Position numbers and translations under genes: made by a program. The notes beneath the pieces were generated by a model. It saw only the letters and a program-made list of their open reading frames with translations, did no database searches and was not told the origin of the DNA. A DNA stretch of 64,000 nucleotides, taken from the IMG/VR virus record IMGVR_UViG_3300020202_000078. The stretch is one strand, 5' to 3'. Positions 8,710-63,521 of the stretch are shown here, piece after piece. Numbering within the stretch: the first letter of the stretch is position 1; every line of letters begins with the position of its first letter. The DNA comes from a virus.

Positions 8710-8766
8710 TGGGACGCCCCGCGATTTGATGGATGGGAAGGCCGGAAGTGTGGAGTTGGAGCGCGT

Positions 8767-8949: not shown

Positions 8950-9035
8950 GGGTTCCTCCCGGGACTGAGGCTGGCGTCTGTGAGTGGACGCGGTGCCGTG
9001 GCCCGCGCCACCTTCGGGGGTCGGCGTGTTCGTGC

Positions 9036-16719: not shown

Positions 16720-16973
16720 CCCGCGAAGAGCGCATCGCCGCCATCAAATCCAGCTCCAATGACTTGGTGATCTACCTCGATGCGATGGCCCGGCAGCTCC
16801 TAGCCCTGGCCCATCCCCAGGCAGACGAGGCGGAGGTTCTGGACCGCCTCGACCGAGCCTTCCGCAATGAGCCCCTAATCCTCCCCCGCTTGGCCAGTCT
16901 AGCTGAACTCGCCCCTCGTACAGCCAAGTCCGGAAGGGACTATGGCGCAGCCGTGAAGGAAGTAGCCGTATGA
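16716..16973 (+). CDS. Hypothetical protein
   Basis: Coupled ORF. Confidence 0.45.
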   Translation: MTREERIAAIKSSSNDLVIYLDAMARQLLALAHPQADEAEVLDRLDRAFRNEPLILPRLASLAELAPRTAKSGRDYGAAVKEVAV

Positions 16974-17233
16974 CCGAGGAAGAAGACCTGTGCCGCACCA
17001 TCACCGAGTTTCGCCGCGTGCTGCCTGGGTGGTGGTTCACGGTCGGCCACTGCAAGCTGACGTCGGACGCATCGTGCGGCCCTGACGCGGGCAATCCGCT
17101 GTGTCGTGTGCCTCGCTTCGACGAGGGCTTTCATGCCGATCTCGAACCGCCTGCCACTTTGGCTGATGCCATGCGTGTCGTGATGGGCGACGCCCTTGAG
17201 GCCAAGGCAGCCGTGAAGGAGATCGCAGCGTGA
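16970..17233 (+). CDS. Hypothetical protein (paralog of 57973-58269; LPGWWF..C..SC.AS.GPD)
   Basis: Shared motif with the right-arm gene. Confidence 0.5.
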   Translation: MTEEEDLCRTITEFRRVLPGWWFTVGHCKLTSDASCGPDAGNPLCRVPRFDEGFHADLEPPATLADAMRVVMGDALEAKAAVKEIAA

Positions 17234-24993: not shown

Positions 24994-25002
24994 GAGGCCG
25001 GC

Positions 25003-25620
25003 ATGAACCGAGCCTATTCCATGTTGGAGGCCAAGGCCTTCGATGACGACAAGCGTACCTTTTCCGGCTGGGCCACCACCCCCGCACCGGACCGCATGTC
25101 GGACACTATCGACCCGCTGGGCGCCAAGTTCCAGAACCCCCTGGTTCTGCTGCACCAGCACAATCACACGGCGCCCATCGGCTCCGTCCGGTTCGGTAAG
25201 CCGACTGCCAGGGGGATCGAGTTCGAGGCCCAAATCCCTGAGATCAAGGAGCCCGGCCCTCTGAAGGACCGCGTGGATACCGCCTGGGGCGAGATCAAGC
25301 ACGGCTTGGTCCGCGCGGTATCGATTGGCTTTCGCCCGCTCAAGTACGCGTTCCGCGACGATGGTGGAATCGACTACCAAGAGATCGAAGTGCTGGAGCT
25401 TAGCAGCGTTTCAGTGCCGGCCAACGCGAGCGCCGTGATCATGGCGGTCAAGTCCATCGACGCCGGCCTGAGGGCCGCCGAGGGCGTGCCCGACCCCGAA
25501 ATTCCGCCGACCCCCGAGAGCGAAGCCGCGCCTGGCAAGTCCGCTCATGTGGTGAAGCTGAACCCCCCGGCCCGCGACAGGGCCCAGCCTTTCGTCATCA
25601 ACAAGATCAACCACCGCTAG
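25003..25620 (+). CDS. HK97-family prohead protease
   Basis: FSGWATTP..D..GD.I.P..LLHQHNHTAPIGSV...SIGF. Confidence 0.75.
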   Translation: MNRAYSMLEAKAFDDDKRTFSGWATTPAPDRMSDTIDPLGAKFQNPLVLLHQHNHTAPIGSVRFGKPTARGIEFEAQIPEIKEPGPLKDRVDTAWGEIKHGLVRAVSIGFRPLKYAFRDDGGIDYQEIEVLELSSVSVPANASAVIMAVKSIDAGLRAAEGVPDPEIPPTPESEAAPGKSAHVVKLNPPARDRAQPFVINKINHR

Positions 25621-25651
25621 GCGCTGCCGGCGGCTGGAAGGAACCACGACA

Positions 25652-27022
25652 ATGCAAACCTACGCAGAGCAACGCTCCGCGTACGAGGCCACCCGCGCCT
25701 CGTCCGCCGCGCGCATGAAGTCCATCATGGACGAGTCGGCCGCCAAGGGTGAAACCCTGGACGCCGCTCAACAGGAAGAGTTCGACACCTTGGAGAAGGA
25801 CATCGAGGCTGTCGATGCTCAGATCAAGCGGCTGAAGACCCTGGAAAGCCTGAACCTGGAGAAGGCCGTCGAGGTCAAGGGCGCCACCGCCGAAGAGGGC
25901 TCCAACGCCCGCTCCAGCGTGACCGTCCAGGTAAAGGGGACCAACGTCCCGGCCGGCATCGGCTTCGTTCGCCTGATGGGCGCCAAGTACCTGGCGCAGA
26001 AGCACTATCAGGCGCCCGCCGAGATCGCCAAGCAGATGTGGCCGGAGATGCCGGAGCTTCAGACCATCCTTCGGACGGCTGTCACCCCCGGCAACACCAC
26101 GGACACCACCTGGGCCTCACCGCTGGTCGAGTACACCAATCTCGCCAGCGAGTTCGTCGATCTGCTGCGGCCGGCGACCATCATCGGCCGCATCCCCGGC
26201 CTGACCCGCGTGCCCTTCAACGTGAAGATTCCCCGCGCCACCACCGACCCGACCGTCAACTGGGTCGGCGAGGGTAAGGTGAAGCCGGTCTCCTCGATGG
26301 CGTTCGACTCGATCACCCTCGACCACACGAAGGTTGCGGGCATCGTGCCCATCACCGAGGAGCTGTTGCGCTTCTCGAGCCCCTCGGCGGAGATGCTGAT
26401 CCGCAACGCGCTGGTCGCGGCCGTGGCCTATCTGACCGACCGGGACTTCCTCGACCCGACGAAAGCCGAAGCGGTGGGCGTGTCGCCGGCTTCGATCACC
26501 AACGGCGTCACCCCGATTACCGCCACCGGCACCACGGCCGACGCCCTGCGCGACGACCTCGGCACGCTGCTGTCGGAGTACGCGGAAGCCAACATGGGCC
26601 TTTCCGGCCTGGTCCTGGTGATGACGGCGCAACAGGCGATCAAGATCAGCCTGATGCGCAACAGCCTGGGTCAGAAGGAGTTCGACACCATCGGCATCGG
26701 CGGCGGCACCCTGGAAGGCATTCCGGTGGTCATCTCCGAGAACATCGTCTCCACCGGCGGCTCGCCGGTCGACGGTGGCCTGATCGTGGCGATCAACGCT
26801 CCCGAAATCCTGCTCGCCGACGACGGCCAGGTGAACGTGGACATGAGCCGCGAAGCCTCGCTGCAAATGGAGACCACGCCGGATAGCCCGGCGTCGGCCT
26901 CTACGGTCCTGACCTCGCTGTGGCAACACAACATGGTCGCCTTCAGGGCCGAGCGTATGATCCACTGGAAGGCCCGCCGCTCTGGCGCCGTTCAGTTCAT
27001 CCAGAACGCCAAGTACCAGTAA
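25652..27022 (+). CDS. Major capsid protein (HK97 fold) with N-terminal coiled-coil delta domain
   Basis: 456 aa, placed after the protease; capsid-like core. Confidence 0.8.
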   Translation: MQTYAEQRSAYEATRASSAARMKSIMDESAAKGETLDAAQQEEFDTLEKDIEAVDAQIKRLKTLESLNLEKAVEVKGATAEEGSNARSSVTVQVKGTNVPAGIGFVRLMGAKYLAQKHYQAPAEIAKQMWPEMPELQTILRTAVTPGNTTDTTWASPLVEYTNLASEFVDLLRPATIIGRIPGLTRVPFNVKIPRATTDPTVNWVGEGKVKPVSSMAFDSITLDHTKVAGIVPITEELLRFSSPSAEMLIRNALVAAVAYLTDRDFLDPTKAEAVGVSPASITNGVTPITATGTTADALRDDLGTLLSEYAEANMGLSGLVLVMTAQQAIKISLMRNSLGQKEFDTIGIGGGTLEGIPVVISENIVSTGGSPVDGGLIVAINAPEILLADDGQVNVDMSREASLQMETTPDSPASASTVLTSLWQHNMVAFRAERMIHWKARRSGAVQFIQNAKYQ

Positions 27023-27027
27023 GGGTC

Positions 27028-27056
27028 GGCCCGCGCCGGTTAGAGCCGGCGCGGGC
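27028..27056 (+). terminator. Perfect 11-bp stem-loop downstream of the capsid gene (attenuator / transcript stabilizer)
   Basis: gcccgcgccggc-ttagag-ccggcgcgggc; no T-tract. Confidence 0.4.
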
Positions 27057-27075
27057 GCCTCTGAGGAGACGCCTG

Positions 27076-27522
27076 ATGAAACTGAAAGTTACAGCGCCGG
27101 ACCTCCGGTGGAAGGGCGTCCGCATACTCAAGGGCGCACCGTTCGAGGCAAACACCGACCGAGAGCGGGAGCTAGCCGATCTGCTGGTGCGGATTGGCAA
27201 GGCGGAGGAGGTCAAGGGAGGCCCCGTCCGGCGCGCTCACGTCGAGGCTCCGACGGCAAAATCGTTGGAGTGGGTCGATCCCCGCCTCGACCACGACGGC
27301 AACGGCAAGCAGGGCGGCTCTGTCGCTGTCACGGCCGAGGAGCCTTTTGAAGACATGACCGACGACCAACTCCGCGAGTTCATCGAGAAGCGGGACGGCG
27401 AGAAGCCGCATTTCCGCCTTGGTCGGCCGAAGCTTCTGGCGCTCGCCAACAAGACCGACGATGCCGAGCCCAGGGTCGGCGAGTACAAGCACCGCGCCAT
27501 GAGGGCTGAAGGCTCTGAATAA
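27076..27522 (+). CDS. Hypothetical head protein with HeH/Rho_N-like C-terminal motif
   Basis: MTDDQLREFIEKRDGEKP. Confidence 0.45.
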   Translation: MKLKVTAPDLRWKGVRILKGAPFEANTDRERELADLLVRIGKAEEVKGGPVRRAHVEAPTAKSLEWVDPRLDHDGNGKQGGSVAVTAEEPFEDMTDDQLREFIEKRDGEKPHFRLGRPKLLALANKTDDAEPRVGEYKHRAMRAEGSE

Positions 27523-27702
27523 GGCCCTCGCCCGAATGCTGGCGGCTGTTGTCAGCCCTCCGGCAGTTATCGCATTCCTGGTGCTGTTTGCCGTCGTGAG
27601 CGCGGCGGTGGGCGTTTCGATGCTCGTGGGCACGGCGTGGACGCTGATCTTCCTGTCCGCCGTCGCCCTGACGATGGCCGTGTTGCTGGCGAGAGGGATG
27701 AG

Positions 27703-36147: not shown

Positions 36148-36969
36148 TTGCGGCTTGAACCGGCAAACACGGCATTCTTCCGTCCCAACGGCTTGAGCGC
36201 CTTCAAGGTCAGGCTTTTCGACAGGGTTGGGGCCGCCATCCAAGCTGCCGGCGGCGCCTATGTGAAGGGCGACTTCGAGCTTCTGGACCACAAGGTAAGC
36301 AAGGGCCGCATTCCGATAGTCGGCTGCACGCCGGAGCTTCGGCCCTACATCAACCGATGGAGGGAGGAAGGGCGGACGTGGGTCTACTGGGATCGGGGCT
36401 ATAATCGCCGGGTCTTTGCCACGGACCTGCCAACAGGAACGGACGGGGGCTACTACCGCTGGCAGGTCAACGGCTACCAGATGCGCGAGATCAGGGATGT
36501 CCCTGCCGACCGCTGGCGGGCCGCTGCAACGCCGTTGTGGCCCTGGTCAAAGAACGGCCGACACATCGTGGTCGCCGAGCCCTCGCCGACCTATCAGCGC
36601 TTCCACCGGATCGAGGGCTGGACGGAGCGGACGCTAGAGGCCCTGAAGGCCATCACAGACCGGCCCATCGTGGTCCGCGACAAGGAACAGCAGCGGTTCG
36701 GACGCAAGCTGCATGAGGATTTGAAGGGCGCCCACTGCCTCGTCACCCACGGCTCTAACGCGGCGGTGGAGGCGGTCATCATGGGTTGCCCGGTGTTCGT
36801 TCACCCCGACAGCGCCGCCTCCCTGGTGGGGCGAACCGATTTCGATATCGAAAACCCGATCTACCCCGACCGCGAGCCCTGGGTTCGGTCGCTTGCCTAC
36901 TCACAGTTCAACGAGCGCGAGCTGATCGACGGCACCCTGTGGCGGCTGCTTGGAGGCCCAAATGACTGA
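36148..36969 (+). CDS. Putative GT-B-like glycosyltransferase (capsule-polysaccharide-biosynthesis-like C-terminal domain)
   Basis: RBS AGGAAAGG before TTG; HIVVAEPS...IVVRDKEQQ..G.K....L.......VTHGSNAAVEAVIMGCPVFV. Confidence 0.45.
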   Translation: MRLEPANTAFFRPNGLSAFKVRLFDRVGAAIQAAGGAYVKGDFELLDHKVSKGRIPIVGCTPELRPYINRWREEGRTWVYWDRGYNRRVFATDLPTGTDGGYYRWQVNGYQMREIRDVPADRWRAAATPLWPWSKNGRHIVVAEPSPTYQRFHRIEGWTERTLEALKAITDRPIVVRDKEQQRFGRKLHEDLKGAHCLVTHGSNAAVEAVIMGCPVFVHPDSAASLVGRTDFDIENPIYPDREPWVRSLAYSQFNERELIDGTLWRLLGGPND

Positions 36970-37168
36970 CACCGAAATGAAGGCGCCAACGATGAGGGTT
37001 CGATTTCTCCGCGACTACGACTACGTTCCATCGGGAGCGCCCCGCTCCATCGTGGCGTACAAGGCGAACACAAAGCCGACCGTGAAGCGCGAGGCCGGCG
37101 AGGCCGCCATCGCCAACGGTGCGGCTGTCGAAATCGCCCCGCCGAAGCGCGTCCGTGGCCGCACCTAA
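36961..37168 (+). CDS. Small hypothetical structural-module protein
   Basis: RBS GGAGG. Confidence 0.4.
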
Positions 37169-37514
37169 GTCCCCCGGCGACCTCAGGCAGCGCATCACCT
37201 TCCAGCGCCGCCTGACGGCGTCCGACGGCTACGGCAATCATCAAGGCGACTGGGCGGACCTGTTCACCCGCTGGGCAAGCATCAACCCTACGCGGGGTGG
37301 CGAGGAAATCCAGGCCGGGCGGATCGCTGGCAAGGCCACCTGGGATTTGTGGATGCGCAATGACGGCCAGGGCCGGGAGGTGGTGACCGGGGACCGGGCC
37401 ATCGACCAGCGCGACAAGACGCGGACGTTCAACATCGTCTTCGGGCCGGTGGATATGTACGGGGATGGCAAGTTCTTGTTCTGCCAACTCCAGTCCGGTG
37501 TCGCTGATGGCTAG
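37152..37514 (+). CDS. Head-tail joining protein (gp16-like / Phage_H_T_join)
   Basis: LRQRITFQRR...DGYGN....W..LFTRWASI.P..G.E. Confidence 0.55.
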   Translation, partial: SVAAPKSPGDLRQRITFQRRLTASDGYGNHQGDWADLFTRWASINPTRGGEEIQAGRIAGKATWDLWMRNDGQGREVVTGDRAIDQRDKTRTFNIVFGPVDMYGDGKFLFCQLQSGVADG

Positions 37515-53982: not shown

Positions 53983-54261
53983 ATGACGCTCCCCAAGATC
54001 GTCACCGACCTGTTTACCGGCCCTGACGGCCACACCTGGCACATGGGCCGGTTCGGCGCGGCCATGACGGTGATCAGCGGTCTTCCCCTGCCTTGGGTGC
54101 AGCTCTGGCGCACAGGTGTCCTGGACCTTGCGGCGACGGGCGTCTTCTACAGCGGTGTCGCGGCTGGGGCCTGGGCGATGGCCCAGGGCGCCAAGAACAT
54201 GGACCTGATGCCTGAGGGGTCCGCCACCACAACCACCACCACGACAACGGAGACCCTGTAA
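53983..54261 (+). CDS. Holin candidate (2 TM) with poly-Thr tail
   Basis: Immediately upstream of and coupled to the endolysin. Confidence 0.5.
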   Translation: MTLPKIVTDLFTGPDGHTWHMGRFGAAMTVISGLPLPWVQLWRTGVLDLAATGVFYSGVAAGAWAMAQGAKNMDLMPEGSATTTTTTTTETL

Positions 54262-54638
54262 TGTGGACCTGGGATCAATCCGCCGGAAAACTCTACCACA
54301 ACGGCCAGCTCGTCTCGACCGGCTACAGCGGCAAGGCGCGCGGGAAGAACAACCCGGCCATGCAAGGCGAGCGAGGCTTCGGTCCGATCCCGCGCGGCAA
54401 GTGGAAGATCGTCAGCCGCTATGACAGCAAGAACGTCGGCCCCTACGCCCTGACCCTTCACGCTGTCGATGGCAAGTTGGACGACACGCACGCCCCAACG
54501 GGGAGGGGAGCGTTCCGCATCCACGGGGACAGCGCGCGGGCTCCCGGCACGGCGAGCCAAGGCTGCATCATCCTTCCCCGGGCCATTCGCGAGAAGATCT
54601 GGACGAGCGGGGATCGTGACCTGGAGGTGGTGGAGTGA
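54261..54638 (+). CDS. Endolysin candidate, DUF2778/Tlde1-like L,D-transpeptidase-fold peptidase
   Basis: GAFRIHGD...GTASQGCIIL His/Cys motif; lysis-cassette context. Confidence 0.55.
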   Translation: MWTWDQSAGKLYHNGQLVSTGYSGKARGKNNPAMQGERGFGPIPRGKWKIVSRYDSKNVGPYALTLHAVDGKLDDTHAPTGRGAFRIHGDSARAPGTASQGCIILPRAIREKIWTSGDRDLEVVE

Positions 54639-55039
54639 TCCCCCGCTGGCTCATCGGAGCGGGCGTCGCCCTCTTCCTCATGCTCCTGGGCGCCTTCGTG
54701 TTCGGAGGCCCCATCGTCTCGTTCTGGAAAGCCCAGACCCACAAGTGGCAGGCCAAGGAAGAGACGGCGCAGGACAACGCCGCCGCGCGAGGCCTTGAAG
54801 CCGGGGCTGGCCAGGCCCTCGCCACCGAACAAGCCGCCATCACCGAGCGCATCATCGAGCGCAACAACGAAAGCATCCGCTATGTGGAGAAGGCCAATGC
54901 AGCCCCGGACGCGCAAACTCCTCTCGGCTCTGATCGTCAGCAGCGTATGCGTGACCACTATGTCAGCCTGTGCAAACAGCGGCCGGCAGTCTGCGCCAGT
55001 GGCGAAAGCCCCAAGGGTGACGACCCCGCTTTACGCTAA
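54635..55039 (+). CDS. i-spanin (Rz-like)
   Basis: N-terminal TM plus periplasmic coiled coil. Confidence 0.55.
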   Translation: MIPRWLIGAGVALFLMLLGAFVFGGPIVSFWKAQTHKWQAKEETAQDNAAARGLEAGAGQALATEQAAITERIIERNNESIRYVEKANAAPDAQTPLGSDRQQRMRDHYVSLCKQRPAVCASGESPKGDDPALR

Positions 55040-55274
55040 GGCCCCCTGCAAGCTCTACGGGCCTCCGGAGGGGCGGGAGCTGACCCTGCAAGACCTGGAG
55101 ATCACGGCGGCCATCCGAGGGGTGGAGATCGTCACCTGTGACGAGAAGCGGGTACTGGCGGACAAGGCCAACATCGAGCAGCAAAAGGCCCTGGACGCCT
55201 GGGAAGCTGAGCGCGCCAAGCGGCGGTGCGAGTGGTGGCGGTTCGGGACATGCAAGCCACCTGACCCCGGCTAG
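54897..55274 (+). CDS. o-spanin (Rz1-like lipoprotein) overlapping the i-spanin in the +1 frame
   Basis: Lipobox LIVSSVCVTTMSAC; Pro-rich; C-terminal Cys. Confidence 0.5.
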   Translation: MQPRTRKLLSALIVSSVCVTTMSACANSGRQSAPVAKAPRVTTPLYAKAPCKLYGPPEGRELTLQDLEITAAIRGVEIVTCDEKRVLADKANIEQQKALDAWEAERAKRRCEWWRFGTCKPPDPG

Positions 55275-55404: not shown

Positions 55405-56232
55405 TTAGCGGATGTTGACGAACGGGGTTGCGCCGGGGCCGACGACCTGCGGCATCTGGCCATTCCACTTGGCGATGGCCTGCTGTTCCAGAACCTGCGG
55501 ATTGGCGCGGAGGGCCTCGCCACGGAGGCGGTATGCTTCGGCGTCACCCTTGGCGATGGCGATCTTCTCCAGGGCTTGCGCCTCCGCCACTTTCACCTTG
55601 GCGGTGGCCGCGAGAACGTTCTGGTCGGCTTGGGTGCGCGACTTGATGCTTTCGAGGATCAGGTCGGGGAAGCGGATCGAGCCGATCCATTCCAGTTGGG
55701 AGATTGTCACCCCCTCCTTCGACCATTTGGTCTGGACGGTCTTGAGGGCGCGCTGGATCACCTGCTGACGCCCGCCAGCCAAAAGGTCATCGACGCCGAC
55801 CTTCTCCGTTTCGGCGGCGATGGCGGCCCGCACGTCGTTGCGGATGGGTCCGTCGAGCAGTTGGGGAAAGCTGAGCCGGTACTTGGCGTACAGGGCTGGC
55901 GCGGCTCTCGGCTCGACCTTCAGGGTGGCGGCCACGTCGGCGGTCATGGGCAGGCCGGTGCGGTCGGTGAAGACGATCTCTTCGTTTTCGTCGCCGTCGT
56001 CGGTCTTCTCGCGGGTGTAGGGGTAGGTCTTCTGGATCGTCGGATAGACCTCGATACGCTCCCCGATGCCGGTGGCGTGCCACCCGTTCGGCAAGGCTTC
56101 CTGCTGGACACCGGCGCCAGAGCCGAGGGTCTTCACCTTCACGCCGGCGTTGCCCGGCTCAACGGTCTTGCCGCAAGCGGCGGTGGAAAGCGCGGCGACA
56201 CAGACGGCCGCCAGGATGATGGCTCGCTTCAT
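55405..56232 (-). CDS. SPFH/band-7 (HflC/stomatin-like) domain lipoprotein
   Basis: Lipobox LSTAAC; SPFH core; RBS GAGGA. Confidence 0.6.
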   Translation of the reverse strand: MKRAIILAAVCVAALSTAACGKTVEPGNAGVKVKTLGSGAGVQQEALPNGWHATGIGERIEVYPTIQKTYPYTREKTDDGDENEEIVFTDRTGLPMTADVAATLKVEPRAAPALYAKYRLSFPQLLDGPIRNDVRAAIAAETEKVGVDDLLAGGRQQVIQRALKTVQTKWSKEGVTISQLEWIGSIRFPDLILESIKSRTQADQNVLAATAKVKVAEAQALEKIAIAKGDAEAYRLRGEALRANPQVLEQQAIAKWNGQMPQVVGPGATPFVNIR

Positions 56233-56470
56233 TGGTTCCTCGTAGGTTGGAAGTGCTTGGCGACGTCGCGGAACATGACCAGGGCGACCCAGGCCAGACC
56301 GAGAACGCCGAACGCGGCGGCGGCAACAGCGCCGAACAGGCCGTAGTCGCTCGCCGAGCCCCAGAGGGGGCCAACGACGCCACGGAACAGGGTCATTGCG
56401 GCGGCGATCCAGAGGAGGGCGTAGGCCGCCCCCTTCGCCGCGCCGATGAACTGGCTTTCGTACACGGGTG
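56229..56470 (-). CDS. Small 2-TM membrane protein partnered with the SPFH gene (NfeD/YbbJ-like arrangement)
   Basis: GTG start with RBS GGAGA; hydrophobic. Confidence 0.4.
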
Positions 56471-56577
56471 ATCTCCTGCGGCGACGGGGCGGGGGTTGCA
56501 AAATCGCCGTGACGTAGATATAAACGCGACGTTGATTTTGAGCAATACATGCCGGAAGAAAAAACGACGCCACGTAG

Positions 56578-56832
56578 ATGAGTTGTGCGACTCCCCCCGA
56601 CGCGCTATCCGCTGCCCTGGTGAAGAACACGCCCTGGCAAGCGCGGCTGAAGGCTGCCGGCCTGACGCAGAAGCGTCTCGCCGCGCTGCTGGGCGTGGCT
56701 GAGAACACGATCTCCCGCCAGATGAAGGGGGATTGGGACGTGCCAGGCTATGTGGAGGCGTTCGTGGTCGCTTGGGAGGAAAGCCCCCCGGACGTCAGGG
56801 AGCGGGTCGCCAAGCGGCTGGGCAAGCCCTAG
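56578..56832 (+). CDS. XRE-type HTH regulator divergent from the SPFH operon
   Basis: AGLTQKRLAALLGVAENTISRQMKG. Confidence 0.5.
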   Translation: MSCATPPDALSAALVKNTPWQARLKAAGLTQKRLAALLGVAENTISRQMKGDWDVPGYVEAFVVAWEESPPDVRERVAKRLGKP

Positions 56833-56921
56833 ACCCGGGCAGAGCCTTCGAGGGCGTCGTGTCTTAGGTACCGGGCCACACGGCTGAGGTAAACTCGGTC
56901 AAAATCGGTAAACTCGATCAA

Positions 56922-56953
56922 GCCCCTCGGTTCAGACCGGGGGGCTTTTCGCG
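56922..56953 (+). terminator. Rho-independent terminator
   Basis: gcccctcggttcagaccgggggg followed by CTTTTCG. Confidence 0.55.
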
Positions 56954-56959
56954 TTTGGG

Positions 56960-57238
56960 CTAGGCGGTCTGCGCGTTCGGAGCGTCGTCATCCTCGTACA
57001 GGCGCTTGCCGGTCTCGTCTTCGATCCAGACCGTATAGCGCTCGTCGCCGCATTCGGACTCATGGTCATCGTCGCCGGCTGCTTGCGCGAAGAACAGGCC
57101 TCGGTTGCAGTCACAAGACCAGTTGCCCATGTCCCAAATGAACTCGGCAGCCTCTAGGTCTTCCGCAAACCAAAGGTCGCGGTCAGTCAGGGAGCGAACC
57201 TCGGCCGTCGTGTTGTCGCGGATGAAGACCGTGGTCAT
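56960..57238 (-). CDS. Hypothetical acidic protein
   Basis: ORF. Confidence 0.45.
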   Translation of the reverse strand: MTTVFIRDNTTAEVRSLTDRDLWFAEDLEAAEFIWDMGNWSCDCNRGLFFAQAAGDDDHESECGDERYTVWIEDETGKRLYEDDDAPNAQTA

Positions 57239-57678
57239 GCTGCGGCTTTTGTCAGGCCAGCAAGGACGGCGATGTTCCGCTGATATTTCCAGAACCGCTT
57301 GTGGTCCTTCTGGGTCGGGTTGGGAATGCGGGACAGGTCGGCGTTGTCCTGCAGGTCCGCCATCTTCACGATGCGGGCGATGGGGTTGCGGGACACGCGC
57401 TTGATGAAGGCGCCATAGGCCTCGCCATCGCGGCGGGTCAGGGCCTCGACGGCTTCGATCACTGGCGCGGAGAAGCCTTCGCGTGCGAGGTCGGCAGCGG
57501 TTACGTCGGTGTCCTCCAAGACGTCGTGCAGGACCGCCGCGATGCGCGCCTCGTCCCCGTCAACGTCGATGGCAAACATGACGCGGAGCGGATGGAGGAT
57601 GTACGGCGCACCGCCATTGTCCACTTGGCCAGCGTGGGCGGTGACCGCAATCTGAATGGCGCGCTCCAGGCTGCTCAT
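57235..57678 (-). CDS. Small alarmone hydrolase (RelA/SpoT-type HD domain (p)ppGpp hydrolase, SAH)
   Basis: AHAGQVDNGGAPYILHPLRV...IAAVLHDVLEDTDVT...KMADLQDN. Confidence 0.75.
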   Translation of the reverse strand: MSSLERAIQIAVTAHAGQVDNGGAPYILHPLRVMFAIDVDGDEARIAAVLHDVLEDTDVTAADLAREGFSAPVIEAVEALTRRDGEAYGAFIKRVSRNPIARIVKMADLQDNADLSRIPNPTQKDHKRFWKYQRNIAVLAGLTKAAA

Positions 57679-57971
57679 GCTGCGGCTTCTGTCTTGCTGG
57701 GGTGGGATAGGATGTGGTCGATGACCCTGACGAAAGCCTCCGCTACAATTCCCTCGCTGATGAAGAAATCGGGGTTGCTGTCGGCGGCAGCGGCCACAGC
57801 CTCCGCCCCCGGCTCCCGTAGAGCGGTGAGGATGGGCGCGATCATGTGTCGATAGGCCGGCCATGCGCCGTTGACGTACTTCTGCACGACAGGCTGTTCG
57901 GCCTTGCCGTGTTTGAGGCAGTCGGCCAGACAGGCCGCCCGCGCCAGCCGTTCGATCACCGGGTTTTCCAT
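57675..57971 (-). CDS. Hypothetical protein
   Basis: Coupled ORF. Confidence 0.45.
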   Translation of the reverse strand: MENPVIERLARAACLADCLKHGKAEQPVVQKYVNGAWPAYRHMIAPILTALREPGAEAVAAAADSNPDFFISEGIVAEAFVRVIDHILSHPSKTEAAA

Positions 57972-57972
57972 G

Positions 57973-58269
57973 TTAGGCCAACTCCTGGATAGCGACGGCC
58001 CTGGCGGCGAGACCTTGACGCAATACGTCGCGGAGTGCGTCGCCTAGGCTCGATGGGTGGCCGATATCGGCATGGAAGCCGTCGTCGAACCCCTCGATCG
58101 CGAGGAGCGGTCGATCGTCCCACTGGAAGTCTGGTCCTGCGCTAGCGTGACAAGAGACGGAGCATTTGCCCAACGAGAACCACCAGCCCGGAAGGGCGGC
58201 CTGGAACTCGTCGATGGCGGCTCGGAGGTCGTCGGTTTCGCCGGGCGTTTCCATACCCAAGAATCCCAC
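57973..58269 (-). CDS. Hypothetical protein (paralog of 16970-17233)
   Basis: LPGWWFSLGKCSVSCHASAGPD. Confidence 0.5.
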   Translation of the reverse strand: MGFLGMETPGETDDLRAAIDEFQAALPGWWFSLGKCSVSCHASAGPDFQWDDRPLLAIEGFDDGFHADIGHPSSLGDALRDVLRQGLAARAVAIQELA

Positions 58270-58529
58270 GAAAACCCTTGAGATTCAAGCAAAAGCGGGC
58301 GATATTAGCCGGGCTGCGGCGGCGGGGAAGGACCCGCTACCGGATGGCTCAGACCCGAGCCGGCTGCCCGCACCAGGCATATCGAAAGATGTGCGACGGC
58401 GCGACCCGAAAGGGAGGGGGCAGACGGTAGCCATGGCGCGCGCGCCGCCTACACGTCGGGAGCCGGTATCAAGCCCGGCCCGCAGCATCTTCCCTCGCCA
58501 AGCCCTACGCGACCAACTACCGTCCCAAC

Positions 58530-58763
58530 ATGGATGAATTAGAGCGCAGACTGGCCGCCCTGGAACTCTGGGCCATCGAGGTCGGCAGCTTCATAGAGCC
58601 CCAGCACCTTGCCGACGCGGCCCGTTCAATCCGCTCCTGCATTGACACCGTAGACCCCGAAGAGCGGGATATCCGCATGGGAGCGTTAGGGCTTATCGAG
58701 GACGCTCAACGCCGCTGGGCGCCGCCTGCCGAGGGGCTGTGTGTTCCTGGGGAAGACCCGTAG
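58530..58763 (+). CDS. Hypothetical protein
   Basis: ORF. Confidence 0.35.
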   Translation: MDELERRLAALELWAIEVGSFIEPQHLADAARSIRSCIDTVDPEERDIRMGALGLIEDAQRRWAPPAEGLCVPGEDP

Positions 58764-58771
58764 ACTGGCGG

Positions 58772-59155
58772 TCATCTGCCGATGTCCGTGAGGTAGTCGA
58801 TTGCCGCTTCGTGGCGGGCTTTGATGTCAGCCTTCTCGAAGGGATCTAGGCGGAAGCCTTCAGGGGCGTCGCACTCGTTCAGCAGGTAGGTGACGGCGCG
58901 GGTGAGGCCCTCAAGGTGATCCGCACCCCCTGCCGCATTGGATGCTCGGAACCCCGCCTCAAAGGCTGCCCACAGCGCGCGTCTGGAGTGGCCGGGATAG
59001 CTCGCCTGACGACAGGCGTTCTCAAAGTCGTCTGTCGCTGCGTAGGCGCACCATGCAAGCTTCACGGGCTCGTCCGGACGATGGCCGTTGCCCGCCCCGT
59101 CACTTCCCGTCTGCGTGTTCGCAGGCTCAGGGCGTCGTTCGCCATGGCTGTTCAT
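58772..59155 (-). CDS. Hypothetical protein; the same frame stays open ~190 bp upstream and encodes a Cys/His-rich zinc-ribbon-like segment without any ATG/GTG/TTG
   Basis: Manual translation of 59156-59350 gives FSFICGCEHCGHKYRRGDGYADNYFCTQVVPGQHCPECG. Confidence 0.4.
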   Translation of the reverse strand: MNSHGERRPEPANTQTGSDGAGNGHRPDEPVKLAWCAYAATDDFENACRQASYPGHSRRALWAAFEAGFRASNAAGGADHLEGLTRAVTYLLNECDAPEGFRLDPFEKADIKARHEAAIDYLTDIGR

Positions 59156-59351
59156 GCCGCACTCAGGGCAGTGCTGGCCGGGGACGACCTGCGTGCAGAA
59201 GTAGTTGTCGGCGTATCCGTCTCCGCGCCGGTACTTGTGACCGCAATGCTCGCAGCCGCAGATGAAGGAGAAGTCGTTCCGATATTGATCCCACTCCTGG
59301 TCAGTGGGATCGGTCGCGGCGGGACTGAGGCTGGCGGGAGTTGGAGCGCGC

Positions 59352-59543
59352 TCATGCTTTACCCGTGGCGCGGGAGATGGCGACTTCGGCTTTGCGAATG
59401 AACGTCATGCCCTCGCGGGCGATTGCGGGGGTGGTGCTCAGCAGGGCGAAGCGGAACAGTTCCTTGACCTCGCGAAGGCTCTCCACCAGATCGGCGATCA
59501 GCTCGTCCTTCTCCCCTTGCGAGCGCTCTTTGGGCGTAGTCAT
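59352..59543 (-). CDS. Small protein paralogous to 8767-8949
   Basis: Shared ERSQGEK and ISRATGKA; flanking DNA duplicated. Confidence 0.45.
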   Translation of the reverse strand: MTTPKERSQGEKDELIADLVESLREVKELFRFALLSTTPAIAREGMTFIRKAEVAISRATGKA

Positions 59544-59761
59544 GGGGCGGTCTTCTTGACGGCAGCGGCGACCGCATCCCGATCCAGCCACAGCACCAAG
59601 CCGAGCATCTTCGTCCCCTTGAGGTCGATGGGCTGCCCCGTCCCAAAGGTGATCTTCGTGCCCTTCTTCTCGCTGTAATTCAGGTCGATGGCGCACTGGT
59701 CGAGGTTCTGAAACTGGACGTTGTCATCGCCGACGGCGAGAATGAGTTCGGACATTTTCAT
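59540..59761 (-). CDS. Hypothetical small protein
   Basis: RBS GGGAGGAA duplicated from 8951-8981. Confidence 0.45.
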   Translation of the reverse strand: MKMSELILAVGDDNVQFQNLDQCAIDLNYSEKKGTKITFGTGQPIDLKGTKMLGLVLWLDRDAVAAAVKKTAP

Positions 59762-59970
59762 TGGGGGTTCCTCCCGGGACTGAGGCTGGCGTCTGCGCGG
59801 CGCTCCTCTTGGTCGCTGCCACTTGGCTTCGGCGTGTTTGTAGGGGCGCACCAAGGGCACGGTTCGGTGCGCCAAGCGGCCTCGGCATGGTCGAACCATC
59901 CGATCTCACCCCGACCATTGCAGGCCTCGCACACCCGCTTCTTCCGCCGGGGCTTCGGCCTGATACCCAT
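59758..59970 (-). CDS. Small zinc-finger protein
   Basis: CEACNGRG...CPWC. Confidence 0.35.
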   Translation of the reverse strand: MGIRPKPRRKKRVCEACNGRGEIGWFDHAEAAWRTEPCPWCAPTNTPKPSGSDQEERRADASLSPGRNPQ

Positions 59971-59993
59971 CGCGGGTTTCCACAGATGATTGC

Positions 59994-60233
59994 TCACGGC
60001 ACCAGCTCCCTCATTGGGACCTCAAGAAAGTCGGCGATCTTGCGGAGCCGGGAGACGGGCAGATCGGAGCGCCCGCACTCGATGTTGGCGACCTGTGCCC
60101 GCGACAAACCGGCAGCGCTCGCCACTTCGTCCTGCGTTTTTCGCTTGGCCTTGCGGGCCGCCTGGATAAACAGGCCGACGTGAGCCTTCTCGATGGGCAG
60201 ATCACCCGTGCCGTCGCAGTAGGGGCACTTCAT
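59994..60233 (-). CDS. XRE-family HTH regulator with N-terminal zinc ribbon
   Basis: CPYCDG; KTQDEVASAAGLSRAQVANIECG. Confidence 0.6.
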   Translation of the reverse strand: MKCPYCDGTGDLPIEKAHVGLFIQAARKAKRKTQDEVASAAGLSRAQVANIECGRSDLPVSRLRKIADFLEVPMRELVP

Positions 60234-60490
60234 GGCCGCTCACCGACGCGAAGGTGAACCTCGTCGCGGACGTTTCTCCCGCATACCAGACACCCATGCT
60301 CATCGCCGGGGTCGACAACATGGATGTGCCGCTTGACCCGCAGGGCTTCCTCTATTGCCGCCACGACAGCATCCGCCTCACTGGCGGCGAGGACGTGGTC
60401 AAACGCGACGGCAATGGTGTGGGTGTCGCGCCGATAGCAAGTGAAGGCTTCCGGATTATAGGCCGACGCCGGTGCGAGGCTCACAGCCAC
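60230..60490 (-). CDS. Hypothetical protein
   Basis: Coupled ORF. Confidence 0.4.
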   Translation of the reverse strand: MAVSLAPASAYNPEAFTCYRRDTHTIAVAFDHVLAASEADAVVAAIEEALRVKRHIHVVDPGDEHGCLVCGRNVRDEVHLRVGERP

Positions 60491-60678
60491 ACCATCACGA
60501 TCACGCCAAGCGCCGCAATGAGTTCACCGCCAGCGCGGGCCATAGAGCGCCAGTGGTCGCCGACGGAACCGTACTGTACCTCGGTCGCTAGCAGGCTGTG
60601 GGTTCGCTGTGCCCCGTAGATCACGAAGGCGCTGGCGGCGATCTTGGCGATGATGAGAAGCCAATTGATGGCGGTCAT
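60481..60678 (-). CDS. Small 2-TM membrane protein
   Basis: Hydrophobic. Confidence 0.4.
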   Translation of the reverse strand: MTAINWLLIIAKIAASAFVIYGAQRTHSLLATEVQYGSVGDHWRSMARAGGELIAALGVIVMVWL

Positions 60679-60944
60679 TTCGGCTGCTCCAGCAGGTCTC
60701 GCGCCAGCCGCGCTTGAAGGTCCACCACGCCGCCAAGAGCCGTGTGGCGATGCTCTGTCATGCCTCGCCCGGCGTACCCGCTGCCGACCGCCGTTACCCG
60801 CTCACCATCGAGTTGAACAGTGGTGACCGCTATGCCGTGGAAGTCGCCGTCGCGAGCCGATTGGAGCATCCGCTGGCAGAAGCGCACGACCTCTTCGTCG
60901 GCTGTGGCTACTGGCTCATTCTCTACCAAGTGCACGGTGTTCAT
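60675..60944 (-). CDS. Hypothetical protein
   Basis: ORF. Confidence 0.4.
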   Translation of the reverse strand: MNTVHLVENEPVATADEEVVRFCQRMLQSARDGDFHGIAVTTVQLDGERVTAVGSGYAGRGMTEHRHTALGGVVDLQARLARDLLEQPK

Positions 60945-60949
60945 TGGCT

Positions 60950-61013
60950 ATCTCCGATATCGTAGTTGAACTCTACACCCATCCCTGTTAGGGTCAACCA
61001 CGATATCGGAGAT
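60950..61013. promoter_or_regulatory. Perfect 14-bp inverted repeat ATCTCCGATATCGT / ACGATATCGGAGAT (37-bp spacer) in a divergent promoter region
   Basis: Seen directly in the sequence. Confidence 0.5.
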
Positions 61014-61056
61014 AGAGATATTTTGACCGCAACCGCGATATCGCTCACAACGCTCC

Positions 61057-61271
61057 CGATGCCGGGGCCAAAGCCGCAAGACCTAGAAGACATCCTCGGG
61101 CGGTATCCGCGCGGGACAAAGGAGCGAATTGCCCGGCTGCTCGGCGAGGGGGCGCCCAAGGGCGCGCAGGCCGAATTGCTACGCGAGGCCCTGGAGAGGG
61201 AGCTAAGGCGGAGGGAGCGGCACGCGAAGCTCAAAGCCCTCGCCAAGCCTAGAACCCATCCCGCAGGTTGA
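61057..61271 (+). CDS. Hypothetical small basic protein
   Basis: ORF after the IR. Confidence 0.3.
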
Positions 61272-61521
61272 TGAGCGGCGTTCCTGGCGCGGCGTTGGCG
61301 GAGAAGAACACCCGCCCGGGGCAGTCACCCTTGCACCTGGGCCGCCTGTTCCACAGCGAGTAGTTCTCGCCCTTCTCGGCAATGATCGCATCAAGATCGA
61401 CAGGCCAGACCGTCTTGCACCGTGAGCAGTAGGCGGTGACCGTGCACCCGCGCTCAACGCCCTCTTTCAGGAGGCCTACGGTAGAGGACCACAGGGGGAT
61501 GGTGGCGGAGGGGGTTCGCAT
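61249..61521 (-). CDS. Cys4 zinc-binding protein
   Basis: CTVTAYCSRC...CKGDC. Confidence 0.4.
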   Translation of the reverse strand: MRTPSATIPLWSSTVGLLKEGVERGCTVTAYCSRCKTVWPVDLDAIIAEKGENYSLWNRRPRCKGDCPGRVFFSANAAPGTPLINLRDGF

Positions 61522-61562
61522 CCCCCGGCTTATGCCTTGGAGAACGGGAGGGGAACAAGGGG

Positions 61563-61763
61563 CTAGGCGGGGCTCGCGGGCTTCGTCCCCAGCTTCACCT
61601 CTCCACCTTCCCCAACAGTCCCAACCGCTACAGGGCGAAGGGCAAACTCTCGGAGGATGGCGTCGGCGGCGTGAACTGAGCGGTTGTCGCCTTGCCCTGC
61701 GTACATCTCGATGATGGCGACCAGCCTCTCCCTAACCCGCTCTCTCAGTACGTCACTGCTCAT
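61563..61763 (-). CDS. Hypothetical protein
   Basis: ORF. Confidence 0.35.
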   Translation of the reverse strand: MSSDVLRERVRERLVAIIEMYAGQGDNRSVHAADAILREFALRPVAVGTVGEGGEVKLGTKPASPA

Positions 61764-62199
61764 AGACGTTAATCCCGAACAAGGTGCGCCACTTTTCCTC
61801 ATCGACCGCCTTCAACTCCTGAACGGTGCGGTTCACCCGCGCCTCATAGTCCGGCGGCTGCGGCCAGACATCTAGGCTTTCGCCAGGTGGCCCGATTAGC
61901 TCGCAGGTCTTTATGTCGCCGTCATACAGCGTGCGGAACCCGCCACTGCACGACATCCCGGCCATAGGCTTGATCTGCCGAACTGCTGCAAAGAGAATGC
62001 TGCTAGGCCAAGGGTCGTGACCGCAGAGCTGCGCAACGCGTCGCGCGACCTCTTCCGTCAGGTTCCTGTTGACTGATACCGTGCCGCCGTGGGTGACGGT
62101 TATTACAGCCCAGCACGCTGGCGAGTCTACCGTTTCGGCGTCTTCCATCTTCCGTCCTTCCTGTTCACTCATGGGGAGGGGGAGTTTCCGCAACAGCAC
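61753..62199 (-). CDS. Hypothetical protein
   Basis: ORF. Confidence 0.4.
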   Translation of the reverse strand: MLLRKLPLPMSEQEGRKMEDAETVDSPACWAVITVTHGGTVSVNRNLTEEVARRVAQLCGHDPWPSSILFAAVRQIKPMAGMSCSGGFRTLYDGDIKTCELIGPPGESLDVWPQPPDYEARVNRTVQELKAVDEEKWRTLFGINVYEQ

Positions 62200-62355
62200 G
62201 CAGGTCTAGGGCGAGGGCGTCAAGCGCCTGTCGCCCCGTCATGCCCGGATAAAGCTTGTAGGCGGCGTCCATAATACTATCGCGATGGCCTGCGGTCACG
62301 ACGATCTCGGCCAGCCTTTGAAGGCGTTTGCTTCTGTCTTCCATCTTCCCCTCCT

Positions 62356-62580
62356 TCAGGGACTAGGGGGCTCAGTCAAAGCCTGCCGAAGGTCGGCAAC
62401 CTCTTCCAGCCGCCAGGCAATCTCCTCCTGCAGATCTTCCAATCGGGCGCGCATGGCGGCCTCGATAGTGGGGTACTCGCCGTTGATCCCGGCGGGGATG
62501 TCGTGGATGTAGCCCGCGTCGCTCGATATGAAGGTCGCCGGTTCATCCTCGTGGTGTTGCCAAGTCCAGGTCAGTTCCAT
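62356..62580 (-). CDS. Hypothetical protein
   Basis: ORF. Confidence 0.35.
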   Translation of the reverse strand: MELTWTWQHHEDEPATFISSDAGYIHDIPAGINGEYPTIEAAMRARLEDLQEEIAWRLEEVADLRQALTEPPSP

Positions 62581-62581
62581 C

Positions 62582-62818
62582 TCATCCCTCCATACTGTTA
62601 GAGCGAGCGGGCTCGAAGCCGCGCATGTATTCCGCCAGGAACGAACCGGACGGCCGGTCATGGACCTTGCCGGGCCCAAGCACTTCAACGCCATGCCGAC
62701 GAGCGCGGTCGATCATGCCCTGCCACCAGTTGTTCGGCTCGCCGCGTTGACAGCCAAGGGCGTCGATCAGGAGCATGACGGTGTGCTCCAGCTCGTCGAT
62801 GCGGTCCTTCTCACCCAT
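62582..62818 (-). CDS. Hypothetical protein
   Basis: ORF. Confidence 0.4.
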   Translation of the reverse strand: MGEKDRIDELEHTVMLLIDALGCQRGEPNNWWQGMIDRARRHGVEVLGPGKVHDRPSGSFLAEYMRGFEPARSNSMEG

Positions 62819-63149
62819 TTCCCTTCTCCGTGTCGTTAGAGCGGAGGACCGGCGTCTCGTCGCCGATTGCTGCCCGTAACATCGCGCGAAAGCGTATCGC
62901 GTGCTTGGCCTTTACGCTGACATACCGATCCGTCGGCCGGCGCTCTGGAGACAGCGCCTTGGCTGCAGCCTTGAGCATCTTGTTGTCGGGCGCCAGCAGG
63001 GCGCGGACAACCGCAACTGTCGCTTCGTCGACGCGATGCTCGGCAATGCCCTGACGCAGGAGCGCAGACCGGACGCGCTGAGCGGCTGGCGTGAACTGCG
63101 GAGCAGGCCAGTCCAGGCCGCCATCACCCTCGGCCATTCGGCCCTCCAA
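62811..63149 (-). CDS. Hypothetical protein next to attR
   Basis: ORF (TTG start in the track). Confidence 0.4.
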   Translation of the reverse strand: MEGRMAEGDGGLDWPAPQFTPAAQRVRSALLRQGIAEHRVDEATVAVVRALLAPDNKMLKAAAKALSPERRPTDRYVSVKAKHAIRFRAMLRAAIGDETPVLRSNDTEKGNG

Positions 63150-63237: not shown

Positions 63238-63261
63238 CTTCCGATGGCTCCCCGGGCAGGA
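63238..63261. repeat. attR: attR core
   Basis: Exact match to 187-210. Confidence 0.8.
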
Positions 63262-63320
63262 CTCGAACCTGCGACCCGGCGGTTAACAGCCGCCTGCTCT
63301 ACCAACTGAGCTACCGAGGA
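63245..63320 (-). tRNA. tRNA-Asn (GTT anticodon)
   Basis: Reverse complement tcctcggtagctcagttggtagagcaggcggctgttaaccgccgggtcgcaggttcgagtcctgcccggggagcca; 76 nt; cloverleaf with a CUGUUAA anticodon loop. Confidence 0.9.
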
Positions 63321-63521
63321 ACATCGCTTCGGAAGGAGGCGGCGTATACGCCGGGGGCGGCGGCGGTGCAAGCCGTGCGGGGCGGAAAAAAGAGCCCGGC
63401 GGATGAGGCCGGGCTGTTCAAAGTCTGTGATGGTGGGGTGTCTTCAAGGAAGACGTCCGGAAGGTCGAACTTTATGGTTAACGAGAGGTGAATCGCGCGC
63501 GTTGAATCGCAAGGTGAGGGA

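Follow-up and report, generated by a model that had tools for sequence, protein, structure and literature searches.

The 64,000-nucleotide stretch of viral DNA analysed here (IMG/VR record IMGVR_UViG_3300020202_000078; the window, hereafter) carries on its minus strand, at positions 57235-57678, an aph-like gene whose 147-residue product (MSSLERAIQ...TKAAA*) is, by sequence, residues, and fold, a member of the Aph/PbcSpo family of HD-domain adenosine 3'-pyrophosphohydrolases. The best explanation for its presence, to which a probability of roughly 0.72 can be given, is that of a toxin-less 3'-pyrophosphohydrolase acting as a partner-independent antidote against toxins of the RelA/SpoT homologue (RSH) type.

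The gene boundaries and the motif of the protein (MSSLERAIQIAVTAHAGQ...KMADLQDN...TKAAA*) were established first. The mechanical open reading frame (ORF) is longer, starting at an upstream ATG at 57864 and encoding 209 residues; the 147-residue start is nonetheless the right one, since homologues all begin M-S-[ST]-L, the 147-residue product was called independently on eleven metagenome contigs, and its ATG overlaps the TGA of the preceding gene (ATGA). The hydrolase motif quoted in an earlier first-pass annotation, AHAGQVDNGGAPYILHPL...IAAVLHDVLEDT...KMADLQDN, is present in the protein, and it lies far beyond chance, as reflected by matches to Pfam HD_4 (E = 1.9e-7, over the gathering score), to phrog_990, 'metal-dependent phosphohydrolase' (E = 6e-53), to the Aph1 structure described below, and to 2,797 database homologues with E <= 1e-10. 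A single HD domain fills the protein and a synthetase domain is absent, in agreement with the stand-alone hydrolase of 147 residues that had been proposed; the protein belongs to the RSH HD superfamily.

Among solved enzymes, the best relative is 7SMG (Aph1 from Bacteroides caccae; E = 6.8e-35, 48% identity over 130 aligned residues), the phmmer alignment spanning Aph1 residues 7-136 and extending through the C-terminal region (Y90-E143) by which the Aph family was delimited by its authors (PMC10083569). Other enzymes are matched more weakly, Rel/SpoT at ~1e-11, Mesh1 at 1e-4 to 1e-5, and the SAHs of Mesh1/PaSAH/RelH type together at 1e-4 to 1e-6, the preference for Aph1 over Rel/SpoT amounting to ~24 orders of magnitude in E-value. 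Residues were compared in an alignment of 122 sequences. The catalytic and metal-binding residues H29, H51-D52, E55-D56, D108, and N112, equivalent to H33, H53-D54, E57-D58, D110, and N114 of Aph1 (PMC10083569), are intact and invariant in all 122 relatives, a check on which the first-pass annotation had made its own proposal depend. The six residues of the (p)ppApp-specificity signature of Aph1 (D24, R96, D116, R119, K133, and Y134; PMC10083569) are likewise all present, as D20, R94, D114, R117, K131, and Y132. This signature discriminates among phage enzymes: the small alarmone hydrolase (SAH) of Pakpunavirus PAK_P2, which belongs to another subfamily, fails at four of the six positions, while that of a T4-like Aeromonas phage passes at all six.

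The monomer model produced by AlphaFold2 (predicted local distance difference test, pLDDT, 95.8; predicted template modelling score 0.90) returned 7SMG as its top Foldseek match, end to end, with template modelling (TM) scores of 0.89/0.93 and a root-mean-square deviation (rmsd) of 1.6 Å. The hydrolase domains of Mesh1, PaSAH, RelH, and Rel/SpoT gave TM scores of 0.65-0.79 and rmsd values of 3-7 Å, and are ~30 residues longer (172-193 residues); in the model, the extra helices of Mesh1, PaSAH, and Rel hydrolase domains are absent. This is consistent with the compact all-helical fold of Aph1, from which helix 0 and the C-terminal helix 9, both present in other SAH and Rel domains, are missing, in a family whose enzymes are homotetramers (PMC10083569). 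The 'SpoT-like' label initially attached to the protein is therefore not retained, given the far better match to Aph1, the conservation of D20 and R117, and the missing helices. The NCBIfam model spoT_relA reaches only 59 bits against a cut-off of 499, the multidomain architecture of HD, SYNTH, and TGS/ACT domains being absent, and NCBIfam holds no dedicated model for the Aph family. As a consequence, database names of homologues are generic or misleading ('HD domain protein', 'GTP pyrophosphokinase', 'ppGpp pyrophosphohydrolase').

Aph1 and the window protein share their length class (~143 and 147 residues), catalytic and six specificity residues, compact HD fold, and a prophage location. They differ in that Aph1 belongs to a MuF-Apk2 toxin/Tis1/Aph1 module in the head-gene region, while the window gene lies in an array of small genes that is close to the attachment site and adjoins the lysis cassette of a phage with an alphaproteobacterial host, with neither a toxin nor a recognisable Tis1/IapK, and has N21 in place of K25. 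A second relevant precedent is the stand-alone SAH (PbcSpo) of Salmonella phage PVP-SE1, which neutralised all five toxic small alarmone synthetases (toxSAS) assayed in E. coli, namely CapRel, PhRel, PhRel2, FaRel2, and FaRel (PMC7229694). This phage gene, too, has no toxin partner, and the role shown for it is the one proposed here. The PVP-SE1 gene product taken to correspond to it, gp220, is 46% identical to the window protein (E = 1e-34) and has 7SMG as its own best match in the Protein Data Bank (PDB; E = 7e-27); PbcSpo and Aph appear, on these grounds, to be one family. Differences are found in the carrier, a 146-kb strictly lytic myovirus in which the gene stands beside thymidylate kinase among genes of nucleotide metabolism, and in the protein, with Gly at the R96 position and ~20 additional residues. 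A third related enzyme, by its published assignment to the PbcSpo subfamily, is ATfaRel, encoded in the faRel operon of C. marina, a type IV toxin-antitoxin system (PMC7229694, PMC11782079). ATfaRel acts on the product of the toxin and not on the toxin, and cross-protects against non-cognate toxSAS; it differs in sharing its operon with the toxin FaRel and a second antitoxin, and in being reported to degrade both ppGpp and ppApp. An arrangement of that kind, with an SAH accompanied by a toxic small alarmone synthetase, is not seen here, no RelA_SpoT- or Apk2-type synthetase having been found in the window. Finally, Mesh1, PaSAH, RelH, and the SpoT/Rel hydrolases have in common with the window protein the HD superfamily, the H..HD..ED..D..N metal core, and 3'-pyrophosphohydrolase chemistry, but they are proteins or domains of 170-190 residues with at least nine helices, in which guanine is read by Arg where the window protein has D20/N21; Mesh1/PaSAH/RelH-type SAHs show dual ppGpp/ppApp or NADPH activity. 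The family has already been studied by crystallography, by enzymology of 13 members, and by the testing of a stand-alone phage copy, and hundreds of phage proteins are gathered in its PHROG; the window protein is a solid and unsurprising member of it.

The window is essentially one ~63-kb prophage integrated at a tRNA-Asn gene of a Caulobacter-like host. Its two ends are marked by perfect copies of a 24-bp direct repeat, CTTCCGATGGCTCCCCGGGCAGGA, at 187-210 (attL core) and 63238-63261 (attR core), the latter overlapping the 3' end of the tRNA-Asn gene (63248-63320, minus strand; Rfam 67 bits, and ARAGORN). In a metagenome contig of 63,192 bp (L003), the 24-bp core connects window position 63261 directly with 187-210, this attP junction being that of the excised or circular form of the phage, while another contig (L001) runs on into the host flank. 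Thus, the phage origin proposed for the gene is borne out. A tyrosine integrase is encoded at 380-1516 (plus strand; Arm-DNA-bind_3, Phage_int_M, and Phage_integrase domains), and its 378-residue counterpart in L003 adjoins attP. The gene set continues with ERF/YqaJ recombination, replication, TerS/TerL, prohead protease, capsid, portal, tail genes resembling those of gene transfer agents, and a lysis cassette, followed by a minus-strand array of small genes. In the host flank, a DUF2339 membrane protein is 70-83% identical to proteins from metagenome-assembled Caulobacter genomes, and beside its gene and the tRNA-Asn, just outside attR, Rfam recognises the Caulobacter small RNA CC0196 (RF01519, 41 bits, the gathering score being 35) at 63391-63450 (minus strand). 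The phage is, then, temperate and siphovirus-like, with a Caulobacter-like alphaproteobacterium as host. It has no close cultured relative, as its right-arm DNA matches GenBank phages at the tRNA only.

In the founding loci of the family, aph1 comes third in a module of MuF-Apk2 toxin, Tis1 (IapK), and Aph1 placed beside the portal gene (PMC10083569, PMC12226406), an arrangement for which Streptococcus phage phiARI0462 (L008) served as reference tripartite locus. No Phage_Mu_F or RelA_SpoT domain was detected by Pfam in any called gene of the window. When a genuine Apk2 was used as control, Pfam recognised its MuF domain and missed its toxin domain; because such a negative is not trustworthy alone, a custom hidden Markov model (HMM), Apk2tox, was built from 54 Apk2-toxin homologues and searched against the 970 six-frame ORFs of at least 40 residues. 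Its best hit in the window had E = 6.5 (2 bits), against 8e-97 for the control, while the same model detects toxins immediately upstream of aph at 32 of the 67 IMG/VR loci considered below. Few unannotated proteins of the phage are as long as the toxin domain of the reference Apk2 (~200 residues), and these gave no score. A phmmer search with IapK returned no match in the window. In addition, ~28 kb separate aph from the portal and head genes, the invariable location of MuF toxins. The phage hence carries aph without an Apk2-type toxin, as an orphan antidote gene, a very divergent synthetase being conceivable; and since the attachment sites bound the whole phage, the toxin-less state applies to the complete phage.

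Toxin-less copies are not particular to this phage. A homologue is present in 554 GenBank phage records, and anything Apk2-like in 128. The carriers of homologues are mostly large lytic phages (Seunavirus-like, T4-like Aeromonas phages, Pakpunavirus, and an Agrobacterium jumbo phage), with Streptococcus (35 records) being the sole genus common to the top-genera lists of hydrolase and Apk2-like matches. In IMG/VR, the best 80 loci were surveyed, and the 67 in which 3 kb or more of sequence precede the hydrolase were examined. At identities to the window protein of 50% or more (17 loci), a strong toxin match was found at 2, a weak one at 1, and none at 14; at 47-50% (14 loci) the figures were 3, 0, and 11; and below 47% (36 loci) they were 24, 2, and 10. 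None of the seven catalytic residues has been lost in the toxin-less copies, and the exact six-residue signature is found in 22 of 35. Therefore, in the branch nearest to the window phage toxin-less copies dominate and keep the specificity residues. Only 0.4% of Aph homologues were reported near a MuF gene (Ahmad et al., PMC10083569). On chromosomes, relatives are found standing alone (Pseudomonas, L014) or beside an HTH-M78 regulator (L012). In Brevibacillus brevis NBRC 100599 (4240428-4250850; L016) a 60%-identical homologue lies among ankyrin-repeat, DUF1877, and DUF4280 (PAAR-like) genes, which suggests an immunity island of polymorphic toxins and use of Aph as orphan immunity also outside phages. 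As a separate observation on phage-borne toxins, 84 Ralstonia solanacearum phage records (e.g. ON170320.1 and ON170019.1) gave weak partial tblastn matches, at 28-33% identity, to the Apk2 toxin domain, and Ralstonia is absent from the ten genera listed for hydrolase matches; these could be RSH-like toxins carried by phages with another immunity strategy.

The closest relative of the window protein, 88% identical (P0002), is encoded by a different phage (L007). DNA similarity between both phages around aph (85.8%) is confined exactly to the ORF, 57235-57678, with none on either flank, aph behaving as a mobile single-gene cassette. With dN/dS, the ratio of non-synonymous to synonymous substitution rates, of 0.116 between both orthologues (dS 0.53), the gene is under purifying selection. 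Both ends of the ORF carry an identical 14-nucleotide stop/start junction, AAGCCGCAGCATGA, at the aph start (57675-57688, minus strand; upstream stop and aph ATG) and at the aph stop (57235-57248, minus strand; aph TGA and downstream ATG). The 12-mer GCCGCAGCATGA, which encodes ..AAA-stop overlapping the next ATG, occurs three times in the 64 kb, two of the copies bracketing aph and the third standing at 16708-16719 (plus strand), at another gene junction near a paralogue of the first gene of the aph operon; shuffled sequences are expected to hold ~0.4 copies of its 9-mer core. The downstream junction of the L007 orthologue, GGCCGCAGCATGA, has the same sequence as that of the window. The bracketing repeat might have been left by recombination when the cassette was inserted, or it might be fortuitous, given C-termini rich in Ala together with ATGA stop/start coupling. 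In three temperate phages, those of the window, L007, and L009 (a 56-kb phage, found on 19 long contigs, whose aph is 60% identical), small genes of one strand form an array that converges on the lysis cassette, and aph occupies its distal end or a place adjoining it.

From these observations we infer both the substrate and the protective role. By analogy with Aph1, the enzyme would remove the 3'-pyrophosphate of adenosine nucleotides in a metal-dependent manner (Mg2+/Mn2+), converting pppApp into ATP and ppApp into ADP, with little or no activity predicted on (p)ppGpp; by analogy within the subfamily, it might also remove the 3'-pyrophosphate from A76 of tRNA. It would behave as a diffusible antidote acting on the product of the toxin and not by binding the toxin, a specific partner being for that reason unnecessary, in line with the reported interchangeability of hydrolase-type immunity proteins between toxins (PMC12226406). 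Its likeliest targets would be toxSAS or Apk-type (p)ppApp synthetases, or tRNA pyrophosphokinases, of the host or of a competitor. As an outcome, either phage replication would be sustained when abortive infection by a toxSAS fires, or the lysogen would be shielded from incoming Apk toxins. In the PVP-SE1 study, such enzymes were proposed to let phages evade abortive infection based on alarmones (PMC7229694). Of the roles considered in the first-pass annotation, the countering of alarmone-synthetase toxins is the best supported.

Several points weigh against this explanation. Position 21 is Asn, while it is Lys in 119 of the 122 relatives, including the 88% orthologue; it corresponds to K25 of Aph1 and to the guanine-stacking R44 of TtRel, and N21 could alter the handling of the substrate. 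The predicted specificity itself is read from six residues and from homologues, and strict adenosine specificity is not universal, the dual activity described for ATfaRel being found within the same subfamily. The PVP-SE1 precedent relies on gp220 being presumably the SAH that was assayed, as the main text of that paper (PMC7229694) gives no accession; no second SAH gene was found in that phage. Regarding a toxSAS in the host, PADLOC returned nothing around aph, and promoter and terminator scans (E. coli sigma-70 type, and relaxed Caulobacter sigma-73-like) were non-specific as to the timing of expression. The literature searched contains hypotheses, but no phage SAH shown to act as counter-defence in a real infection. 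Finally, turnover by the hydrolase is far below that of Apk1 (PMC12691689), and protection against an injected toxin of the type VI secretion system (T6SS) would consequently be only partial.

An account that overlaps with the antidote explanation, differing from it only in the substrate, is that the enzyme acts on tRNA 3'-pyrophosphorylated at A76 by defence toxins of the CapRel, PhRel, or FaRel2 type and not on a free nucleotide, restoring aminoacylation during infection. CapRel-type toxins, which the first-pass annotation had regarded as alarmone synthetases, are in fact not alarmone makers and pyrophosphorylate tRNA, a modification that SAHs of the ATfaRel subfamily can reverse (bioRxiv 10.1101/2021.04.30.441581), and CapRel-type systems are proven anti-phage defences (PMC9712102). 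ATfaRel removes the toxSAS-added pyrophosphate from the tRNA CCA end, and both ATfaRel and MESH1 restore aminoacylation of FaRel2-modified tRNA (bioRxiv 10.1101/2021.04.30.441581); the PVP-SE1 SAH, from a gene 46% identical, neutralises the tRNA-targeting CapRel, PhRel, PhRel2, and FaRel2 (PMC7229694); and an adenosine-specific 3'-pyrophosphatase would chemically fit the terminal A76. On the contrary, tRNA activity is not reported for Aph1 (the term 'tRNA' is absent from PMC10083569), the compact tetrameric Aph fold may not admit the acceptor end of a tRNA, and the window sequence offers nothing on this question of substrate. Pyrophosphorylated tRNA is accordingly regarded, on the strength of ATfaRel, as a plausible second substrate, and tRNA repair as the sole function of the enzyme as unlikely.

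Override of the stringent response, also put forward in the first-pass annotation, would have the phage enzyme degrade the (p)ppGpp of its host, and the infected Caulobacter would go on growing and replicating, to the benefit of phage production. The cell cycle of Caulobacter is under strong control by ppGpp. The window protein has its fold and catalytic residues in common with (p)ppGpp hydrolases, many homologues bear the label of ppGpp pyrophosphohydrolase in databases, and the base-contacting position is occupied by the unusual N21. Moreover, while Aph1 and all 12 tested homologues hydrolyse ppApp, two of the 12 have modest ppGpp activity (PMC10083569), and ATfaRel was reported to act on both nucleotides. 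However, D24 and R119 set the specificity of Aph1, and the double replacement D24R/R119A is what permits ppGpp hydrolysis, which even then proceeds at ~3 per minute versus ~478 per minute for ppApp (PMC10083569); the equivalent D20 and R117 are kept in the window protein. D20/N21 stand where Rel enzymes have their Arg-Arg guanine-stacking pair, and the E-value of every (p)ppGpp hydrolase falls short of that of Aph1 by >20 orders of magnitude. Taken together, relatedness to Aph1, specificity residues, and fold favour (p)ppApp hydrolysis, and make override of the stringent response quite improbable.

Another substrate, either NADPH as in metazoan Mesh1 or 3'-phosphorylated signalling nucleotides of some other defence system, appears very improbable: HD-domain SAHs are promiscuous, Mesh1 acting on NADPH and PAPS (3'-phosphoadenosine 5'-phosphosulfate) according to PDB titles, and metabolic promiscuity being described for an orphan SAH (PMC9765508), but an adenosine 3'-pyrophosphate pocket is indicated by a full Aph signature and a nearly identical fold, and ppApp was a substrate for every homologue tested. 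Equally hard to credit, and largely, indeed essentially, refuted, is cognate immunity against a (p)ppApp synthetase of the same phage, as in the apk2-iapK/tis1-aph1 modules of Bacteroides, Streptococcus, and Pasteurellaceae prophages, which represents the original setting of the family (PMC10083569, PMC12226406), holds at 32 of the 67 IMG/VR loci and at the Streptococcus phage locus, and would find an echo in the small protein encoded directly upstream of aph in the IapK/Tis1 position, but is opposed by a complete phage without MuF, RelA_SpoT, Apk2tox, or IapK matches, by the distance to the head genes, and by nearest relatives that are mostly toxin-less.

The array in which the orphan antidote gene resides extends over 55405-63137 (minus strand), from attR to the lysis cassette, and comprises ~20 small same-strand genes, with two or three ORFs on the opposite strand; its earlier description as a right-arm accessory operon with other small genes was correct. 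Besides aph, its only recognisable members are an XRE-type helix-turn-helix (HTH) protein (59994-60233) and an SPFH/Band-7 lipoprotein (55405-56232). PADLOC, run on 10 array proteins, returned no match and revealed no recognisable defence or anti-defence genes near aph, while PHROGs (17 array and neighbouring proteins) and NCBIfam returned, apart from the hydrolase, only HTH regulators and phrog_6851, a family of unknown function; Pfam was likewise mostly empty. The array consequently lends no functional context.

Within the array, aph belongs to a tightly packed block of four genes. The first one (57973-58254, minus strand) encodes a 93-residue protein without matches in Pfam, PHROG, NCBIfam, or PADLOC, which has a paralogue elsewhere in the prophage (16970-17233, plus strand; 45% identity, E = 8e-23, to the ORF at 16907-17230). 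The second one (57675-57971, minus strand), directly upstream of aph and with its stop overlapping the aph start (ATGA), encodes a 98-residue protein and is the only neighbour whose linkage to aph is conserved, a 43% homologue (E = 1.4e-15) being encoded two genes upstream of aph in L007. This protein has almost no homologues: a word-indexed search returned itself alone, exhaustive HMMER gave 8 matches among 1.8 billion representatives, 2 of them credible small proteins, and no Pfam, PHROG, NCBIfam, or PADLOC match was obtained; its AlphaFold2 model, made from 3 sequences, is too poor for use (pLDDT 51). Conserved only alongside the lineage of the window aph, it could be a new non-enzymatic partner. 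The gene that follows aph (56960-57238, minus strand), called both as an ORF and in metagenomes, has its start overlapping the aph stop (ATGA) and encodes an acidic, Cys-containing protein of 92 residues; it has no family match in the same four databases, and it is not kept next to aph in L007 or L009.

Directly downstream of this operon, the 275-residue SPFH/Band-7 lipoprotein gene (55405-56232, minus strand) is preceded by that of a 78-residue membrane protein (56229-56465), the pair facing an XRE-type HTH gene on the other strand (56578-56832) and having no PADLOC match; it could constitute an exclusion or membrane-stress module. A second pair of paralogues links the array (59352-59543, minus strand) with 8770-9057 (minus strand) at 44% identity (E = 3e-5), including a 46-bp stretch of 98% DNA identity at 8752-8797. 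In the adjacent lysis cassette, a Tlde1-domain protein (54261-54638, plus strand), apparently a wall-degrading enzyme, carries an L,D-transpeptidase-like domain known from T6SS effectors; the cassette also includes 53983-54261 and 54635-55274, with overlapping spanin-like ORFs after the Tlde1 gene, one of them with a lipoprotein-like signal.

Further features were observed in the virion structural module. The head order at 23323-30427 (plus strand) is unusual, with TerL, S78 prohead protease, major capsid protein, a 200-residue ORF, and portal; the 446-residue protein after the portal matches the 'portal protein' PHROGs 1289 and 2271 and shows no match to a Pfam portal or MuF family. Oddly located within the same module is a block of sugar, methyl, and acyl transferases (30917-36969, plus strand), flanked by a head-tail connector (30379-31002) and a head-completion protein (37119-37514). 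It contains GT8 (31477-32286), a GT9 heptosyltransferase-like protein (32163-33038), and two S-adenosylmethionine-dependent methyltransferases (33031-33588 and 33573-34196), together with a hexapeptide acyltransferase (34724-35401) and ORFs without annotation. The block could serve for virion glycosylation or host-surface modification. Two additional tRNAs called by ARAGORN, a tRNA-Trp (80 nucleotides, 31300-31379, plus strand) and a tRNA-Ile (88 nucleotides, 62454-62541, plus strand), lie in or antisense to coding sequence, have no support at the Rfam gathering threshold, and are probably false positives.

Regarding the family as a whole, a generalisation can be offered tentatively, and with more doubt than conviction: the toxin-less Aph genes of temperate phages would form a distinct class of mobile 'universal antidote' cassettes, placed in arrays proximal to the attachment site and to lysis genes. 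They may shield the lysogen from (p)ppApp synthetase toxins of competitors, or of superinfecting phages armed with MuF toxins, as orphan immunity and lysogenic conversion; alternatively, they may disarm abortive infection by a host toxSAS on induction, possibly through repair of 3'-pyrophosphorylated tRNA. If either role were true, (p)ppApp or tRNA-pyrophosphate warfare would take place in Caulobacter-like alphaproteobacteria, for which, to our knowledge, no description exists.

The practical value of these observations lies in better annotation, as signature and fold predict a (p)ppApp-specific enzyme contrary to the ppGpp labels in use, and they link two literatures, that on the toxSAS-neutralising 'PbcSpo' phage SAH and that on the 'Aph' (p)ppApp hydrolases. 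Were the role of orphan antidote demonstrated in infection or in lysogens, it would provide a clean and easily testable example of counter-defence at the level of the toxin product, and, if true, it would mean that adenosine-alarmone or tRNA-pyrophosphate toxins matter in the ecology of Caulobacter.

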